In this document: positions 1,236 to 7,287 of the stretch, piece by piece | How positions within the stretch are numbered: the first letter of the stretch is position 1 | Layout: the number at the start of each line of letters is the position of its first letter | Origin: Escherichia phage KKP 3715 | DNA: 64,000 bases | Sequence record: OR067834.1 | Strand: one strand, 5' to 3' | Translations under genes and position numbers: made by a program | Notes under the pieces: model-generated | Told to the model about the DNA's origin: nothing | Databases searched by the model: none | The model's input: the letters and a program-made list of their open reading frames with translations, nothing else

Positions 1236-3224
1236 ATGAAAGACATGTTTGCTCAAGGTGGTTCTGGTTCTGCTGGAATCAAGACCAATAAACAAGCAAT
1301 TGCTCGTGCTTGTAACGTTAAAGTAAGTGAAGTCATTTATAGCAATGACACCATCACTACTCTTGATGGTAAAAAGGTTATCTATGATAAACCTAATCAG
1401 TATATCTGGGGCTTACCTTCTGGTATCCCATCTGGGGCTACCGTTGTAACTGTGACTGGGGCTACTCTGGTTTATAACCCTGGCAATATCTCAGTTACAT
1501 TGGAATTAGTTCCTAATTCTTCTGTTAACCAATTAAAACAAGATTTACTATCTTCAAACGGTTTTTCTTTAGTTGGTGGAATTAGGGGTATTGTTAAAAC
1601 CTCTGAAGTAGCTAACTTAGAAGATGCTATTACGTTAGCATTAGAAAATGATGCTGATGTTCTAGTAGATAATATTCAGAACATTACAGTACCAATCCGT
1701 AAATCCTTGAATGGAAAAGATATTAAAATAATTTCTACACCTAGTGGTTGGATTAACTTTACCCCAACGGATGCTAACACTTACTATCAGGTTCTGACTT
1801 TTGACGGAACTGGGGTGGAAAGCGTAACCACTAAAGTGAAGATAGATGGTGGTAAAGTTCGCGGCGTAGGTCGGGCTGTTGTAGGGATTACGGTAAATAA
1901 CGTTTACGCACATTATGAAAGCTCAGAGATGAGGAACATCAGCGCATGTGTAAACACAGTTACCGCCCAGATTCACCTGTGTTATGGGGCTAAATATTAT
2001 AACGTATTTCAACAACTTGCTTCTCAAGACTGGAGTGCTGGAGTGTATGGCTATGGTACTGTACCAATTGATTGTGAAACTGTATTAGTAGAAGCCAATA
2101 CATTTGGTTTGTCCGGTCAACCATTAGACCGTCATGCAGTTTATTGTTCTAGTCAAGCTGATGGAACAGGTGTAGTTCGTAATGCATTTGTCTGTAATAA
2201 CACAGCAGTAATGCGTGACTACACCACGGAAACAGCAGAGACAACAAGTGAACGCTGCTTTAAATTCATTGGTACAAACCGGGTACATCTTCACCATAAT
2301 ACATTACGTGGGGGATATGGGTTCTGTCTGATAACACTTCATAAATTCCAAACCATGGAAAACATCCGCATCGATAACAATAGAGCAAGAACTTACGCAA
2401 GCGGAATTATTATCGCAGGACAGAACGAAGCCTCGGCAGAACCTGATGCAACATGGTACGTTGATGAATTACAGATGGCTAATAACCATTTCCGTATGAG
2501 AGCTACGGTAGCTGGAACAAGTAATGGGGCTGAGTGGCGCAACACGTATCGTGTTAGTGACGTTGGCAGTTCGTATGTAAACGAGGCATTTGCAACGGTG
2601 AATGCGTTAACTGTTTACTACCCAAAAACAGACCGCATACGAACTGAGAGTTTCCGTTCCGAATCTTGCTACTATCAAGGGTTCCAAAATATCACCCGAG
2701 AAATGGCCCCCACTTACACCTATATAGATATTACATGCCGTAATGCTGTTAACACTCAGAATCCCCTGAATGCATCCGGCGCTACTGTCCAGAATGTAAA
2801 AGTACGGAGTCTTGATAACACGGCGATGTGGAAGGATTACACGGCTACCGCAATTGTAGGGTTCTCATACTACGACCCTAGCTTTCTTAAATTCATAAGA
2901 TGTGCAGGAGCTGGATTGTGGGAAGATGAAGATGGGTATCCAGTAGTTGGATTATCTACTGGCAGGCCCACTAGACTTCGTGAAGGTCTTAAATTCTACC
3001 AAACAGATTTAGCCACAATGATTACTTGGACCGGTTCTAACTGGGTTCTCCAGTCAGCAGGATATACTGGGATAATTAAATCAGGAACAACTCCACAAAT
3101 AAACTCTGTGAACAAGGCATTACTTGGTTATGGACATGTTATATATAACACCGACACCAAAAAACCGGCTTTCTTTGATCAATTAGCTCAGTCATGGAAG
3201 TACGCAGACGGTAGCGCAATGTAA
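1236..3224 (+). CDS. tailspike / tail fibre protein (beta-helix-like, possible depolymerase)
   Basis: 662 aa; ATG with GAGGT RBS about 6 nt upstream; beta-helix-like repeat composition; followed by an intrinsic terminator. Confidence 0.45.
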   Translation: MKDMFAQGGSGSAGIKTNKQAIARACNVKVSEVIYSNDTITTLDGKKVIYDKPNQYIWGLPSGIPSGATVVTVTGATLVYNPGNISVTLELVPNSSVNQLKQDLLSSNGFSLVGGIRGIVKTSEVANLEDAITLALENDADVLVDNIQNITVPIRKSLNGKDIKIISTPSGWINFTPTDANTYYQVLTFDGTGVESVTTKVKIDGGKVRGVGRAVVGITVNNVYAHYESSEMRNISACVNTVTAQIHLCYGAKYYNVFQQLASQDWSAGVYGYGTVPIDCETVLVEANTFGLSGQPLDRHAVYCSSQADGTGVVRNAFVCNNTAVMRDYTTETAETTSERCFKFIGTNRVHLHHNTLRGGYGFCLITLHKFQTMENIRIDNNRARTYASGIIIAGQNEASAEPDATWYVDELQMANNHFRMRATVAGTSNGAEWRNTYRVSDVGSSYVNEAFATVNALTVYYPKTDRIRTESFRSESCYYQGFQNITREMAPTYTYIDITCRNAVNTQNPLNASGATVQNVKVRSLDNTAMWKDYTATAIVGFSYYDPSFLKFIRCAGAGLWEDEDGYPVVGLSTGRPTRLREGLKFYQTDLATMITWTGSNWVLQSAGYTGIIKSGTTPQINSVNKALLGYGHVIYNTDTKKPAFFDQLAQSWKYADGSAM

Positions 3225-3230
3225 AACTAA

Positions 3231-3255
3231 CCCCGCTCAGGCGGGGTTTTTTGTT
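3231..3255 (+). terminator. Rho-independent terminator after tail fibre genes
   Basis: Hairpin ccccgc-tcag-gcgggg followed by tttttt. Confidence 0.6.
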
Positions 3256-3324
3256 GTGCCACAAACAAATCATTGGGTAGACTGTTTCAGTCAATTACGA
3301 CTTAACCAACCTGAGAAAGTCCCT

Positions 3325-3657
3325 ATGGGAAATGAACCAGATAACGTAACTCTAGCCAGACTCGAAGAGAGACTGAGAAACATTTTCGAAAACCAAACCC
3401 GTGAATCGAGGGAAAGGGAGAAAATGGAAGAGTCTATTAAAAAGCTAAGTGAGTCTATGGGCGACCTTAGTACCCGACTTAAACGGGTAGAAGAGAGCAT
3501 CACTAAGTCTGAACCTACCATCGAAGAGTTCATCACTATTAAACATAAGGTTGCTGGTGCTGGAATTTTTGGTAAGTGGGTGTGGGCTGGAGCAGGTGCA
3601 ATCATTGGTGTATTGGCTGCTGCAAGACGGGAGATATTCGCATGGTTTGCAGGCTAA
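3325..3657 (+). CDS. small membrane protein (holin/antiholin-like), N-terminal coiled coil and C-terminal glycine-zipper TMD
   Basis: ATG at 3325 with gagaaag RBS; the track start at 3256 is a GTG inside the terminator and was moved. C-terminus AGAGIFGKWVWAGAGAIIGVLAAA is hydrophobic; sits immediately upstream of the endolysin. Confidence 0.35.
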   Translation: MGNEPDNVTLARLEERLRNIFENQTRESREREKMEESIKKLSESMGDLSTRLKRVEESITKSEPTIEEFITIKHKVAGAGIFGKWVWAGAGAIIGVLAAARREIFAWFAG

Positions 3658-3902
3658 AAAGAAAGATAGGACTAGTACCTAACTGGAAGAAGTCCTGGAA
3701 GTGGGCATCTGTTCAGATTAGCACGTTTGGATTAATTCTGTTTTCCGTCGTAGATATTATCCAACCAATGCTAACAGGGCTACCTCGCCACATCCTGGAA
3801 GATATTCCACATGGTTCCAGCATTACAATCGCACTATTTGCCTTAAACATTGTAGGCAGACTAATACGATTCCATCCAAAGGAAGATTCTCATGAAAGCT
3901 AA
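3642..3902 (+). CDS. putative holin / pinholin (two predicted TMDs)
   Basis: 86 aa from the in-frame ATG at 3642; two hydrophobic helices (ISTFGLILFSVVDIIQPML, ITIALFALNIVGRLI); overlaps both neighbours as lysis genes often do. Confidence 0.4.
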   Translation: MVCRLKRKIGLVPNWKKSWKWASVQISTFGLILFSVVDIIQPMLTGLPRHILEDIPHGSSITIALFALNIVGRLIRFHPKEDSHES

Positions 3903-4527
3903 ACAGAAACTTGCTGCAAAAGGTGGTGCAGTGGGAGGAGTTGTCGCTGCTATTCTGGGGGCAGTGTTCTATATGGAAGGGGGGTACGTAAACAATCCTC
4001 GTGACCCAGGTGGGGAAACTAATCATGGTATTACTCAATCAGTAGCTAAGTCTCACAAAGAAGTTCTGGCTACTGAGTATGGTTGGGATGGTTCCATGAA
4101 GGGTTTATCTAAAGAGATGGCTGCTGAGATATACATAGATGACTACGTACTTAAGCCTAACTTCGTAGCTTTCGCTGATATATCTCCTGCTGTAACACAC
4201 AAACTGGTTGATGCTGGTGTTAACACAGGTGTAACCAGACCAGCTAAGTGGTTGCAGCAATCTCTTAATGAAATGTCCCGTGATGGCAAAGACTACCCTA
4301 AAATACAAGTTGATGGTAAAGTCGGTGCAGGTACTGTTAATGCATATAAAGCATTACAGAAAAAACGAGGCAAAGTTGCAGCATGTCAGGTAATGATTAA
4401 GTTACTTGATGCTAAACAACTGAACCACTACACCTCATTGAACATGCCAGACTTTACGTATGGTTGGGTAGCTAACCGAATTGGTAATGTACCACTGGAG
4501 GCATGTAATGAAGATGCTAATCTCTAA
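3892..4527 (+). CDS. signal-anchor-release (SAR) endolysin, GH108-type N-acetylmuramidase with peptidoglycan-binding C-terminus
   Basis: Motif EGGYVNNPRDPGGETNHGIT matches the GH108 signature EGGY..DPGG.T..GIT; N-terminal hydrophobic Gly/Ala-rich stretch KGGAVGGVVAAILGAVF consistent with a SAR domain. Confidence 0.75.
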   Translation: MKAKQKLAAKGGAVGGVVAAILGAVFYMEGGYVNNPRDPGGETNHGITQSVAKSHKEVLATEYGWDGSMKGLSKEMAAEIYIDDYVLKPNFVAFADISPAVTHKLVDAGVNTGVTRPAKWLQQSLNEMSRDGKDYPKIQVDGKVGAGTVNAYKALQKKRGKVAACQVMIKLLDAKQLNHYTSLNMPDFTYGWVANRIGNVPLEACNEDANL

Positions 4528-5008
4528 AGGTTGGCCTTATCTTCTGGTGGTGGTCCTCGGGGCCACCATTTACTTTTGGGGCAATTCCAATGGGCAGTCT
4601 ACTGTTCAAAAGAGGTGGGATGCCCAAAAGGTTGAAGACCTGAAGGCAACACAAAAACTACAGGACAAATACAATGCTCTCCAAAGAAACCATAGTTATG
4701 AAGTCGGGTTACTTACTTCCCGGTTGCAGACGGCTGAGAGTAATTACGCAAGCGAGCTTGCTCGCGTTAGCAGTGATTACGACAGCCGGATGCAACAGTC
4801 TGAAAGACGAGCATCGGTATATAAACGTCAAGCCGAAACCGGAACCCTTGAGTGCAGAAGTCTTGCAAGCCATGCAGCCAGACTCGACAACAGTCTTGAA
4901 GAAGGCAGACGTTTGGTTGAAGAACTCCGGGCAACTGTTAGACTCCGTGACAACCAACTAATTGAGTTGGGTAAGCAAATTCAGGCTGACCGTAAACTTT
5001 TTGAATAG
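4508..5008 (+). CDS. i-spanin (Rz-like)
   Basis: N-terminal TMD ([16 protein letters not shown]) then a long charged helical periplasmic domain; overlaps the endolysin stop; contains an embedded +1-frame lipoprotein ORF. Confidence 0.6.
4698..4961 (+). CDS. o-spanin (Rz1-like lipoprotein) embedded in the i-spanin gene
   Basis: MKSGYLLPG...LAVITTAGC: signal peptide ending in a lipobox-like TAGC, then a short Pro-containing periplasmic tail; lies entirely inside 4508-5008 in another frame. Confidence 0.55.
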   Translation: MKSGYLLPGCRRLRVITQASLLALAVITTAGCNSLKDEHRYINVKPKPEPLSAEVLQAMQPDSTTVLKKADVWLKNSGQLLDSVTTN

Positions 5009-5016
5009 GATTAACT

Positions 5017-7287
5017 ATGGAACACCAAGACACTTTTAAGCCTTTACCAGACCCGGCTCAATCAGAGAAGTTAACGGACTGGAAGAAGGAACCAAGTATC
5101 CAATTACTGAAGGGTGATTTGGAATCAGCTAAACCGGCTCACGATGCGATTATGGCACAGATTCGTGAGTGGAATGACCTGATGGAAGTCAAGGGTAAAG
5201 CTAAACCCCCAAAGGTTAAGGGACGCTCACAAGTCCAACCCAGACTGGTTCGCCGTCAGGCAGAGTGGCGATATGCTCCATTGTCTGAGCCGTTCCTCTC
5301 ATCTAATAAACTCTTTAAAGTAACTCCGGTTACCTTTGAAGATGAGTTAGCTGCACGTCAGAATGAATTAGTTCTTAACTACCAATTCCGTACCCAGCTT
5401 AATAAAGTAAAACTGGTAGATGATTACGTACACAGTGTCGTAGATGACGGTACTGGTATTGCTCGTATTGGTTGGGAACGTAAGACTGTTAAGATTAAAA
5501 CAGAAACTCCTGTATTTCAGTTGTATCCAATTGAGAACCAGGAACAGGCCGATGTTCTCCAGCAGGCTTTACAGCTTCAGGCAGAGAATCCTCGTGAGTA
5601 TGATGAAACAATGCCGGAAGATATTAAGGAAGCTGTTAACTACTTCAATGAAACTGGGGAAGCTACCTATGCAATCCAGACTGGGGTTACTGAAGTAGAA
5701 GTAGAGAAGGCACTGGTTAACAGACCTACTGTTGAAATGCTTAACCCTAATAACGTAGTTATTGACCCAAGCTGTAATGGTGATTTGGATAAGGCTCTTT
5801 ATGCAGTTATCTCGTTCGAGACATGCAAAGCAGACCTCATGAAGAACAAAGACCGTTACCACAATTTAGATAAGATTGACTGGGAAAGCTCCAGCCCTAT
5901 GACTGACCCAGACCATGAGAGTAAAACCCCTAGTGACTTCCAGTTTAAGGATGCACTTCGTAAGAAAGTTGTTGCTTATGAATACTGGGGATTTTACGAC
6001 ATTAATGATGACGGTTCTCTGGAACCCATTGTTGCTACCTGGATTGGTTCTACCCTTATTCGTATGGAGAAGAACCCATTCCCGGATGGTAAATTACCTT
6101 TAGTAGTTGTTCCTTACATGCCACGTAAACGAGAACTATTCGGTGAAGCTGATGCTGAACTGTTAGGAGATAACCAAGCAATTCTTGGTGCAACTATGCG
6201 TGGGATGATTGACCTGTTAGGTCGAAGTGCAAACGGTCAACGTGGCTATCCTAAAGGGATGTTGGATACACTGAACCGTCGTCGGTATGACGATGGGCAA
6301 GACTATGAATATAACCCAATGCAGGGCAATCCTAGTCAGGCCATTATGGAACATAAGTTCCCTGAGTTACCACAGTCGGCAATAATAATGACCCAGATGC
6401 AAAACCAGGAAGCAGAATCCCTAACTGGTGTTAAAGCATTCTCTGGTGGTGTAACTGGTTCAGCTTATGGAGATGTGGCTGCTGGTATTCGTGGTGCACT
6501 TGATGCAGCATCCAAACGTGAGATGGCAATCCTTCGTCGATTAGCTAAGGGTATGGCAGACATTGGTACTAAGATTTGTGCAATGAATGCCGTGTTCTTA
6601 TCAGAGAAGGAAGTAGTACGTATTACTAACGAGCAGTATGTAGAGATTAACCGTGAAGACCTTAAAGGTAACTTCGATATTGAGGTTGATATTAATACTG
6701 CCGAAATTGATAACCAGAAGTCTCAGGATTTGAGTTTCATGGTTCAAACATTGGGTAATACGGTTGACCAGACTATTACGTTATCTCTTGTAGCTAAGAT
6801 TGCAGAACTTAAACGTATGCCTGACCTGGCTCATGAGTTACGTACTTGGCAACCACAGCCAGACCCTATGGAAGAGCAGCTTAAGCAATTGGCGATTCAG
6901 AAAGCACAGCTTGAGAATGAAGAGTTACAAAGTAAGATTGCACTCAATATGGCTAAGGCTAAAGAGGCTGCTTCTAGTGGTGACCTTAAAGACCTGGATT
7001 ATCTGGAACAGGAATCTGGTACTAAACATGCCCGTGATATGGAAAAACAAAAAGCACAATCTCAAGGAAACCAGAACCTTCAGATAACTAAGGCATTGAC
7101 AACACCTATTAAAGAAGGGGAAACTACCCCCAACATATCTGCAGCTGTTGGATATAATACTTTGACTAACGGGAACTCTATACCAGAACGTGATTTAGCT
7201 GCTCAACAAGACCCGGCTTATTCACTCAGTTCCCAATACTATGACCCTAGCCAAGACCCAGCATCGGCTCTTGGCATGAACCTGTAA
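5017..7287 (+). CDS. portal protein
   Basis: 756 aa; AGGA RBS; size and position (three genes upstream of the capsid gene) match the N4 portal as recalled; acidic C-terminal tail. Confidence 0.55.

Follow-up and report, generated by a model that had tools for sequence, protein, structure and literature searches.

The segment at positions 3325-5008 of the window, a 64,000-nucleotide stretch of Escherichia phage KKP 3715 (OR067834.1), is, with a probability of about 0.88, the late-expressed set of lysis genes of a coliphage belonging to Gamaleyavirus (G7C-like, N4-like Schitoviridae), and sequence comparison indicates that this multigene cassette is orthologous gene by gene to the cassette of phage N4. 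Our re-reading of the open reading frames from the sequence yielded five co-directional, overlapping genes (A to E below) just 3' of the tail-spike terminator, colinear with N4 gp63-gp62-gp61-gp60/gp60a at protein identities of 59/53/67/56/62%. The initial annotation had described a five-gene overlapping lysis cassette after the tail fibre terminator, and both its coordinates and all five identities were borne out by orthology to N4 and by the match to G7C, Bas96, and Mimir124. The transmembrane domains (TMDs) and the lipobox, on which that reading had been made to depend, are both present in the sequence. The five-gene module as such is already known, being annotated in near relatives and having been experimentally examined in its N4 versions. 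The functional assignments are carried over from N4 orthologs at 53-67% identity, and the N4 source is a preprint (Awuah et al., bioRxiv 10.1101/2025.11.12.688109).

Organization and conservation of the cassette

At the DNA level, the segment is about 96-97% identical to the Gamaleyavirus phages G7C, Bas96, SP5M, and E20, with a range of 94-97% for the annotated cassettes of G7C, Bas96, and Mimir124 and of 95-97% over the full cassette for the Gamaleyavirus records (G7C, Bas96, SP5M, E20, PhAPEC5/7, Mimir124), with which the encoded proteins share 95-100% identity. The annotated cassettes of G7C, Bas96, and Mimir124 have the same genes in the same order, with the same sizes and overlaps. Point substitutions constitute the sole sequence difference from G7C (vB_EcoP_G7C, HQ259105) and other Gamaleyavirus records. 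These records already carry the labels gp63, gp62 (holin), gp61 (N-acetylmuramidase), and gp60/gp60' (Rz/Rz1), and they disagree with one another over the label of gene A, the start of the i-spanin (the equivalent of 4508 or 4514), and the start of the o-spanin. With N4, the window shares the same five genes, their order, strand, and overlaps, the embedded o-spanin, and the domain families. The successive genes A/B, B/C, and C/D overlap by 16, 11, and 20 nt, which suggests translational coupling that fixes their stoichiometry. Minus-strand open reading frames within 3291-5033 (up to 104 aa) were dismissed, as they lie antisense to conserved genes and are without family support.

The upstream edge of the cassette is marked on the plus strand by an element resembling an intrinsic terminator at 3229-3256, consisting of a hairpin (3229-3248; arms AACCCCGC-TCAG-GCGGGGTT) with an 8-bp stem containing 6 GC pairs, followed by a T-run, and located directly 3' of the tail-spike stop at 3224. 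This element and the adjoining intergenic DNA are 88-90% conserved even in Ackermannviridae phages. In the same phages, a 5' fragment of the pinholin gene remains as a scar adjoining a tail-spike gene. A search for a sigma-70-like promoter on the plus strand between the terminator and gene A found none; the late promoters of N4 are weak and activator-dependent.

Gene A encodes the candidate pinholin

Gene A (3325-3657, plus strand, ATG start) encodes a gp63-like protein of 110 aa that matches phrog_5211 over residues 1-110 (E=2.8e-49) and is 100% identical to a protein of phage SP5M. Its product combines a charged helical N-terminal part, presumably cytoplasmic, with a 'Receiver' motif and, at the C-terminus (about 77-100), one TMD rich in Gly and Ala. 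The hydrophobicity profile has a single peak at 81-99 (KD19 1.59), within and around which lie the small-xxx-small motifs A79xxxG83, A88xxxA92, G91xxxG95, and G95xxxA99, in agreement with the earlier description of a C-terminal glycine-zipper TMD. The AlphaFold2 model consists of one continuous helix from residue 6 to 109 (pLDDT 91), and the positive-inside rule gives an ambiguous orientation, with K73/K75 before the TMD and R101/R102 after it.

In N4, gp63 has been identified as a pinholin that complements the S21 pinholin and not lambda S105, kills cells on its own, and can be deleted only with compensating mutations in the SAR domain (10.1101/2025.11.12.688109). Because N4 gp63 is experimentally a pinholin, the 110-aa protein was assigned as the probable pinholin of the cassette, an assignment supported by its orthology. 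Residues 61-110 are identical to N4 gp63 at 43/50 positions, against 22/60 in residues 1-60, so that the TMD and 'Receiver' region is 86% identical, whereas the N-terminal 60 residues are only about 37% identical; the alternative start of N4 (Met13/Met17) is, moreover, absent from the gene A of the window. The 'Receiver' motif, EPTIEEFxTIKHKV, occupies residues 63-76, is invariant except for I70/T in 15 close homologs, and remains recognizable in 46 distant ones. Rapid-lysis mutations of N4 map to this region of gp63 and to the SAR domain of gp61 (10.1101/2025.11.12.688109), and both of the mutated threonines, T65 and T71, are kept in the gene A product.

In many records, gene A is labeled as a 'tail length tape-measure protein'. 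This label was rejected, given that the product has only 110 aa, matches no structural family in Pfam or PHROG, and has phrog_5211 as its sole significant family. Weak Pfam matches (CLZ, leucine zippers, and DUF1515 in 6/46 family members) fall below the curated cut-offs and were regarded as coiled-coil noise.

The system of phage 21 (S21-68/R21/Rz-Rz1) provides a functional parallel, in that depolarization through small holes frees a SAR endolysin and embedded two-component spanins finish lysis. The two systems have, however, no sequence relationship: S21 carries two TMDs, one of them a SAR domain, whereas in the gene A product a long cytoplasmic helix precedes the single, C-terminal TMD. The single hydrophobic peak and the one continuous helix of the AlphaFold model place the gene A product outside the S21-type (class II) pinholins. 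R21 is a lysozyme whose sequence family is not known to be related to GH108.

Gene B encodes a putative lysis regulator

Gene B (3642-3902, plus strand, ATG start) encodes an 86-aa protein, a gp62-like lysis regulator or late holin-like protein, which matches the Pfam family DUF7940 (PF25612) with 52.8 bits (cut-off 27) and phrog_1356, 'holin' (E=2.7e-28), and is 53% identical to N4 gp62. As had been claimed from the sequence, it has two hydrophobic peaks, at residues 22-40 and 59-77. Its N-terminus is rich in Lys/Arg (7 in residues 1-21), and by the positive-inside rule we infer an N-in/C-in topology with both termini probably cytoplasmic. The ATG is preceded, 8 nt upstream, by the Shine-Dalgarno sequence GGGAG. 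A longer form of 108 aa, starting at GTG 3576, is possible though unsupported. In this frame, which is opened by a TAA created by the conserved Gly-Lys codons of gene A and overlaps the most conserved part of that gene, the upstream start codon is a GTG here and an ATG in N4 (where the equivalent has 109 aa), and the start is absent in several lineages. The short start has the better Shine-Dalgarno sequence and is the first available start in lineages L014-L016, L030, L032, L047, and L049; the 108-aa form was thus set aside as unproven.

The N4 counterpart, gp62, has been characterized as a 'lysis regulator' that the phage can do without and that shows holin-like activity late; it becomes lethal after triggering with CCCP, slowly releases SAR as well as soluble endolysins, and in co-expression with gp63 makes lysis faster (10.1101/2025.11.12.688109). 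These properties bear on three other ways of dividing the roles between genes A and B. It is improbable that the 86-aa protein is the true holin and the 110-aa protein an accessory, regulatory, or even structural component. The 'holin' label of phrog_1356 and the 'putative holin' label in G7C, the class-II-like topology (two TMDs, N-in/C-in), and the CCCP-triggered lethality and slow endolysin release of N4 gp62 are in its favor, as is lineage L033, where DUF7940 and gp63-like proteins are paired with a soluble endolysin (Hydrolase_2), which needs large holes. On the other hand, deletion of N4 gp62 left plasmid-driven lysis unchanged and the phage viable, no gp62 mutant occurred among more than 60 N4 rapid lysers, and it is gp63 that alone complements S21, kills, and requires compensating SAR-domain mutations for its deletion. 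The structural variant is further weakened by the unsupported 'tape-measure' label and the missing Pfam/PHROG structural match.

The initial annotation had considered a possible pinholin/antiholin pair. The pinholin half of this proposal stands, with the 110-aa protein in that role by way of N4 gp63, while the antiholin half is improbable; N4 gp62 accelerates lysis together with gp63. An inhibitory 86-aa protein that delays lysis by the 110-aa pinholin is very improbable, even though 60/65 N4-like genomes carry both genes, these overlap by 16 nt as neighbors, and the wild-type N4 delta-62 phage lysed about one hour earlier. This delta-62 phenotype was not complemented in trans, surplus gp62 left lysis timing unchanged, and gp62 with gp63 in a SAR-endolysin background produced faster rather than slower lysis; G7C-type phages, moreover, are reportedly without lysis inhibition.

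Finally, the gp63-like and gp62-like proteins might be two obligate components of one holin, as in the Bacillus XhlA/XhlB system (SPP1 gp24.1/gp26), a reading to which we attach scarcely any probability. The architecture and neighborhood are the same, namely a coiled-coil protein with a TMD at its C-terminus beside a two-TMD holin, as in SPP1, where gp24.1 belongs to the XhlA family, the endolysin is encoded by gene 25, and gp26 falls into Holin_SPP1. The synergy of N4 gp62 and gp63, the pairing of the gp63 family with soluble endolysins as well, and a weak match of gene A to phrog_1193, 'hemolysin' (E=3.4e-4), point in the same direction. However, only 2/46 family members match phrog_1193, none of the 46 matches Pfam XhlA (PF10779), and an hhalign comparison of the 46-member family profile with SPP1 gp24.1 gave a probability of 10%, confined to the coiled-coil part; N4 gp63, furthermore, works alone as a pinholin, with gp62 being dispensable. 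Homology of gene A to XhlA/SPP1 gp24.1 was therefore rejected, the resemblance being architectural only (0/46 in Pfam, 10% in hhalign). The preferred assignment remains a 110-aa pinholin with an 86-aa accessory partner.

Gene C encodes a predicted SAR endolysin

Gene C (3892-4527, plus strand, ATG start) encodes a gp61-like protein of 211 aa, identified by Pfam and N4 orthology as a probable SAR endolysin with a GH108 N-acetylmuramidase domain. Both Pfam domains score above their cut-offs (Glyco_hydro_108, PF05838, residues 24-113, 71.9 bits against 21.2; PG_binding_3, PF09374, residues 117-196, 33.1 bits against 24.6). The predicted SAR anchor covers residues 1-28 (3892-3975), with 4 Lys in residues 1-10 followed by an uncharged stretch at 11-28, GGAVGGVVAAILGAVFYM, of which 50% is Gly+Ala. 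This hydrophobic stretch abuts the catalytic Glu of EGGY at residue 29, without a polar c-region, and in all nine phages compared a basic N-terminus leads into an uncharged hydrophobic stretch that immediately precedes the EGG motif. The earlier claim of a GH108 endolysin with a SAR-like N-terminal anchor is thus confirmed at the level of sequence.

In N4, gp61 is a SAR endolysin that complements an R21 defect, and its G12E substitution is a rapid-lysis allele (10.1101/2025.11.12.688109; for the enzymology of gp61, this source cites Stojkovic & Rothman-Denes 2007). The gene C product is 67% identical to gp61 and keeps the Gly run of its SAR domain, the site of the rapid-lysis mutation, which supports a SAR endolysin of the N4 gp61 type whose anchor, by orthology, would remain uncleaved. 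It differs from gp61 in starting with ATG and three extra N-terminal residues, where N4 has a GTG. The closest solved structures are the Salmonella muramidases 6V3Z (Sen1395; E=3.8e-27) and 6V40 (E=2.7e-20), which share the GH108 + PG_binding_3 fold family and the EGGYVN motif, with EGGY at residue 29 aligning to KEGGYVN of 6V3Z, but which originate from bacterial type 10 secretion systems and not from a phage lysis module.

Genes D and E encode a putative embedded spanin pair

Gene D (4508-5008, plus strand) encodes a gp60-like i-spanin of 166 aa that matches phrog_6197, 'Rz-like spanin' (E=7.4e-77), and is 56% identical to N4 gp60; its ATG at 4508 is preceded, at a distance of 6 nt, by GGAGG. 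The product is a type-II membrane protein in which an N-terminal TMD at about 8-24 (KD peak 3-21) is followed by about 142 residues in the periplasm; its only Cys is residue 116. These features are consistent with the i-spanin originally proposed. Gene E (4698-4961, plus strand), a gp60a-like o-spanin gene encoding an 87-aa precursor, lies wholly inside gene D in the +1 frame, with a further upstream ATG at 4674. The precursor comprises a 31-aa signal peptide, the lipobox ITTAG|C (Cys codon 4791-4793), and a mature lipoprotein of 56 aa with Asn as the +2 residue (non-Asp; outer-membrane sorting). The mature length is 56 aa in N4 too, whereas the signal peptide there has 16 aa, with MKS as a second start.

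Frame length is not significant in itself, as an equally long open +1 frame arose in 242 of 5000 sequences obtained by shuffling the codons of gene D. Gene E was judged to be real because of its conservation, which is stronger evidence than a length reached in about 5% of shuffles. All nine phages compared retain both the lipobox Cys and the mature sequence, and the motif YINVKP...QAMQPDST...NSGQLLDSV is conserved in the o-spanins of Bas96, G7C, Mimir124, Jgk1, N4, KP8, HN05, and phiEaP8. With the N4-like phages of Stenotrophomonas, Delftia, and Xanthomonas, a DNA alignment is still possible at positions 4800-4960 only. The per-codon rates of gene D at the three codon positions are 0.20/0.15/0.19 in the overlap with gene E, compared with 0.30/0.27/0.40 before it and 0.14/0.11/0.35 after it; this loss of the third-position excess in the overlap indicates a probable dual coding constraint. 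The lipobox, the conserved Cys, and the codon-position pattern together uphold the proposed lipoprotein o-spanin in the +1 frame, which the Bas96 record names o-spanin and the G7C record gp60'. N4 gp60/gp60a complement lambda Rz/Rz1 (10.1101/2025.11.12.688109), and genes D and E are accordingly supported as a putative two-component embedded spanin of the Rz/Rz1 type in the N4 gp60/gp60a family, for which outer-membrane disruption would follow by orthology.

Proposed course of lysis

The mechanism outlined here is deduced by orthology, with experimental demonstration for N4 only. The GH108 muramidase would be exported by the Sec system and kept inactive at the periplasmic face of the inner membrane by its uncleaved, weakly hydrophobic, Gly/Ala-rich SAR helix, with the catalytic Glu29 held directly at the membrane. 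The 110-aa tail-anchored pinholin would meanwhile build up in the inner membrane and, at a programmed time, open small lethal holes that collapse the proton-motive force. Depolarization would let the SAR helix exit the bilayer around the whole cell, leading to degradation of the murein, after which a complex of the inner-membrane i-spanin and the outer-membrane o-spanin lipoprotein, spanning the periplasm, would disrupt the outer membrane. The 86-aa two-TMD protein may act as an accessory, non-essential modulator with a slow holin-like activity of its own, which together with the pinholin would hasten lysis.

The wider gp63 family and the Receiver motif

In distant N4-like contigs, members of phrog_5211 adjoin soluble endolysins that lack an N-terminal anchor. 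A gp63-family gene lies next to an Amidase_2 endolysin in L031, a Hydrolase_2 endolysin with a DUF7940 partner in L033, and, in L039 and L042-L046, a GH24 lysozyme accompanied by an unrelated protein with two TMDs. Since a strict pinholin is unable to release soluble endolysins, 'pinholin' may not describe the whole gp63 family. Tentatively, the family could represent a general tail-anchored lysis trigger that acts with a second membrane protein, beyond SAR-endolysin pinholins, although we consider this rather unlikely.

The 'Receiver' motif of N4 gp63 has been proposed as the target of a lysis-inhibition signal. N4 shows lysis inhibition, and G7C-type phages reportedly do not; the motif is nevertheless fully conserved in the G7C-type lineage. 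Its retention where lysis inhibition is reportedly absent may mean that it serves hole formation itself or contact with a partner, and not the reception of a signal.

Dozens of deposited Gamaleyavirus genomes contain the pinholin/SAR-endolysin/spanin module, and this further example matters little in itself. Annotations can, however, be corrected: the labels 'tail length tape-measure protein' and 'hypothetical protein' for gene A should give way to pinholin-family protein, lysis regulator or holin-like protein is the better name for the product of gene B, and the embedded o-spanin is absent from many records. As a lineage reported to be without lysis inhibition, these phages, set against N4, offer a natural control by which the proposed 'Receiver' model of lysis inhibition in N4 can be judged.

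A five-gene lysis cassette colinear with that of phage N4

An ORF listing and the raw sequence revealed five genes on the + strand, flanked by those for the tail spike (1236-3224) and the portal (5017-7287; Pfam SU10_portal, E=3.6e-151): gene A (gp63-like, 3325-3657, 110 aa), gene B (gp62-like, 3642-3902, 86 aa), gene C (gp61-like, 3892-4527, 211 aa), gene D (gp60-like, 4508-5008, 166 aa), and gene E (gp60a-like, 4698-4961, 87 aa, or 95 aa from ATG 4674), the last lying wholly in the +1 frame of gene D. Genes A to D overlap in turn, by 16, 11, and 20 nt, and the coordinates and descriptions of all five in the initial annotation were accurate. Megablast returned 95 phage records, with the best matches (E20, F22, ST4, SP5M, Bas96, PhAPEC5/7, and G7C; 96-97% identity, 98-99% query coverage) belonging to Gamaleyavirus (Schitoviridae, Enquatrovirinae). 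G7C (HQ259105) is annotated with a hypothetical gp63, a putative holin gp62, an N-acetylmuramidase gp61, and Rz/Rz1 as gp60 and the embedded gp60', and Bas96 with a holin, endolysin, Rz-like spanin, and o-spanin. The N4 cassette (NC_008720, gp63-gp60) is colinear with that of the window, with global identities of 59% (A), 53% (B), 67% (C), and 56% (D), and 62% for the gene E product by tblastn. The finding is real and correctly interpreted, and the system is known, annotated, and experimentally characterised in N4. A GC-rich hairpin with a T-run (3229-3256) lies 3' of the tail-spike stop. No sigma-70-like promoter was found on the + strand from this terminator to the first lysis gene (3249-3324); the cassette may be transcribed by read-through or from an activator-dependent late promoter.

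Endolysin and spanins

The gene C product matched Glyco_hydro_108 and PG_binding_3, both above curated cut-offs, and its nearest solved structures are the Salmonella GH108 muramidases 6V3Z and 6V40. Its N-terminus reads MKAKQKLAAK, followed by GGAVGGVVAAILGAVFYM, which is uncharged and half Gly/Ala, and then the catalytic EGGY at residue 29; judged by composition, this is what would be expected of a signal-anchor-release (SAR) domain. These features uphold the proposed GH108 endolysin with a SAR-like anchor. In N4, gp61 is a SAR endolysin that leaks slowly by itself and rescues endolysin defects in lysogens of both lambda, which has a canonical holin, and hy21, which has a pinholin (Awuah et al., bioRxiv, 10.1101/2025.11.12.688109).

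The gene D product, with a TMD at its N-terminus, matched phrog_6197 'Rz-like spanin' (E=7e-77); its start at 4508, with GGAGG 6 nt upstream, agrees with the M-K start in N4. The gene E product shows a basic n-region, a hydrophobic core, and the lipobox ITTAG|C with Asn at +2, giving a mature lipoprotein of 56 residues. Since about 5% of gene D codon shuffles contained an open +1 frame this long, length alone proves little, and three other lines provide stronger evidence that gene E is real. Eight phages (Bas96, G7C, Mimir124, Jgk1, N4, KP8, Burkholderia phage HN05, and Erwinia phage phiEaP8) retain the frame together with its lipobox Cys and mature sequence (YINVKP...QAMQPDST...NSGQLLDSV). 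The third-position excess of gene D vanished within the overlap in eight pairwise comparisons, with per-codon rates of 0.30/0.27/0.40 before, 0.20/0.15/0.19 inside, and 0.14/0.11/0.35 after it. Moreover, only 4800-4960 of the cassette can still be aligned at the DNA level with N4-like phages infecting Stenotrophomonas, Delftia, Xanthomonas, Alcaligenes, and Pseudomonas, as double coding constraint predicts. The start of gene E must be 4698 (or 4674); the o-spanin signal peptide has 31 aa here, compared with the 16 aa given by a second internal MKS start in N4. The i-spanin with an embedded lipoprotein o-spanin was correctly recognised, and N4 gp60/gp60a complement lambda Rz/Rz1 (10.1101/2025.11.12.688109).

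The two upstream membrane proteins

The gene A product, identical (100%) to a protein of SP5M, combines a highly charged N-terminal 75 residues with a single hydrophobic segment (81-99) bearing several small-xxx-small motifs, and its AlphaFold2 model (46-sequence alignment) is a single helix from 6 to 109 (pLDDT 91). Residues 61-110 share 43 of 50 positions with N4 gp63, compared with only 22 of 60 for residues 1-60. An exhaustive profile search (E<=1e-3, clusters at 50% identity) gave 168 clusters, nearly all of 100-130 aa with the same layout and a consensus retaining PTIxEF...K..V.GAG.LG..LW; all 46 sampled members belonged to phrog_5211, and none of the 46 reached a Pfam cut-off. Since a weak PHROG match agrees with an architectural resemblance to Bacillus XhlA/SPP1 gp24.1, homology to these proteins was tested, and none was found.

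The gene B product has a Lys/Arg-rich N-terminus, hydrophobic segments at 22-40 and 59-77, and matches to Pfam DUF7940 (52.8 bits) and phrog_1356 'holin'. Its ATG at 3642 is preceded by GGGAG 8 nt upstream. The frame is also open for 22 codons upstream (3576-3641), with an in-frame GTG at 3576, directly after a TAA, that would give a 108-aa form equivalent to the 109-aa gp62 counted in N4, which has ATG at this position (10.1101/2025.11.12.688109). This TAA is created by conserved Gly-Lys codons of gene A, and 3576-3641 falls wholly within the TMD-coding part of gene A, overlapping its most conserved segment. Several lineages lack an equivalent of this GTG, and their earliest usable start is the short one.

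In N4, induction of a gp60-63 clone leads to lysis of E. coli after about 25 min, and gp63 is the pinholin; gp62 is non-essential, lethal once CCCP-triggered, slowly frees both SAR and soluble endolysins, and together with gp63 gives faster lysis; the authors termed it a 'lysis regulator' (10.1101/2025.11.12.688109). In light of these data, the 'hypothetical' and, in many records, 'tail length tape-measure protein' labels of gene A are wrong, and the PHROG and GenBank 'holin' label of gene B is imprecise. The suggestion of a pinholin/antiholin pair holds for the 110-aa protein as pinholin, but the 86-aa protein is without any demonstrated antiholin activity. By orthology, the muramidase would be exported and held inactive by its SAR helix. 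Its release would come at a programmed time, through depolarisation of the membrane by the tail-anchored pinholin; disruption of the outer membrane by the spanin complex would follow, with the 86-aa protein modulating timing. Rapid-lysis mutations in N4 map to the gp63 'Receiver', a conserved stretch beside the TMD (e.g., T65I, T71A), and to the gp61 SAR domain (G12E), and G7C is described as lacking lysis inhibition (10.1101/2025.11.12.688109). T65 and T71 are present in the gene A product.

Apparent module exchange and the wider gp63 family

Most Gamaleyavirus relatives align only from about 3475 onward, many with 93-94% identity from about 3475-3487 (gene A codons ~51-55) and unrelated sequence upstream, and the N-terminal half of Mimir124 gene A is nearly identical to that of Klebsiella phage KP8, unlike that of the window. 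The break and this likeness place a mosaic junction within the pinholin gene, where its invariant segment begins, and the variable cytoplasmic N-terminus appears to move along with the tail-spike module. Similarity of the 662-aa tail-spike to the Bas96 and PC3 tail proteins is confined to its N-terminal ~90-120 residues (the adaptor part). Its receptor-binding part matched no Pfam family, so the tail-spike probably represents a separate module for host range. The intergenic DNA (3249-3324) is kept even in Ackermannviridae: the 155-kb phages PC3 and A221 carry, unannotated and just downstream of a tail-spike gene ('tail spike 3'), a stretch that matches the terminator, the intergenic region, and codons 1-24 of gene A at 88-90% identity, followed by unrelated sequence (window 3223-3400; Escherichia phage PC3, L009, 3001-3180; A221, ON862890.1, 3514-3665). 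This stretch has the look of a scar left when a tail-spike module passed between Gamaleyavirus and ViI-like phages.

Most of the 40 IMG/VR loci compared that carry a gp63-like gene repeat the arrangement of the window. Distant gp63-like (phrog_5211) genes adjoin soluble endolysins without an N-terminal anchor instead of the SAR GH108 enzyme: Amidase_2 in locus L031 (15-1097), Hydrolase_2 with a DUF7940 gp62-like protein in L033 (2965-4039), and Phage_lysozyme/GH24 in L039 (3001-4478), L042 (178-1526), L043, L044, L045 (2998-4214), and L046, where the partner is an unrelated two-TMD protein encoded after the endolysin. As a strict pinholin is unable to release soluble endolysins, the role of the gp63 family may be broader than the 'pinholin' label given in N4.
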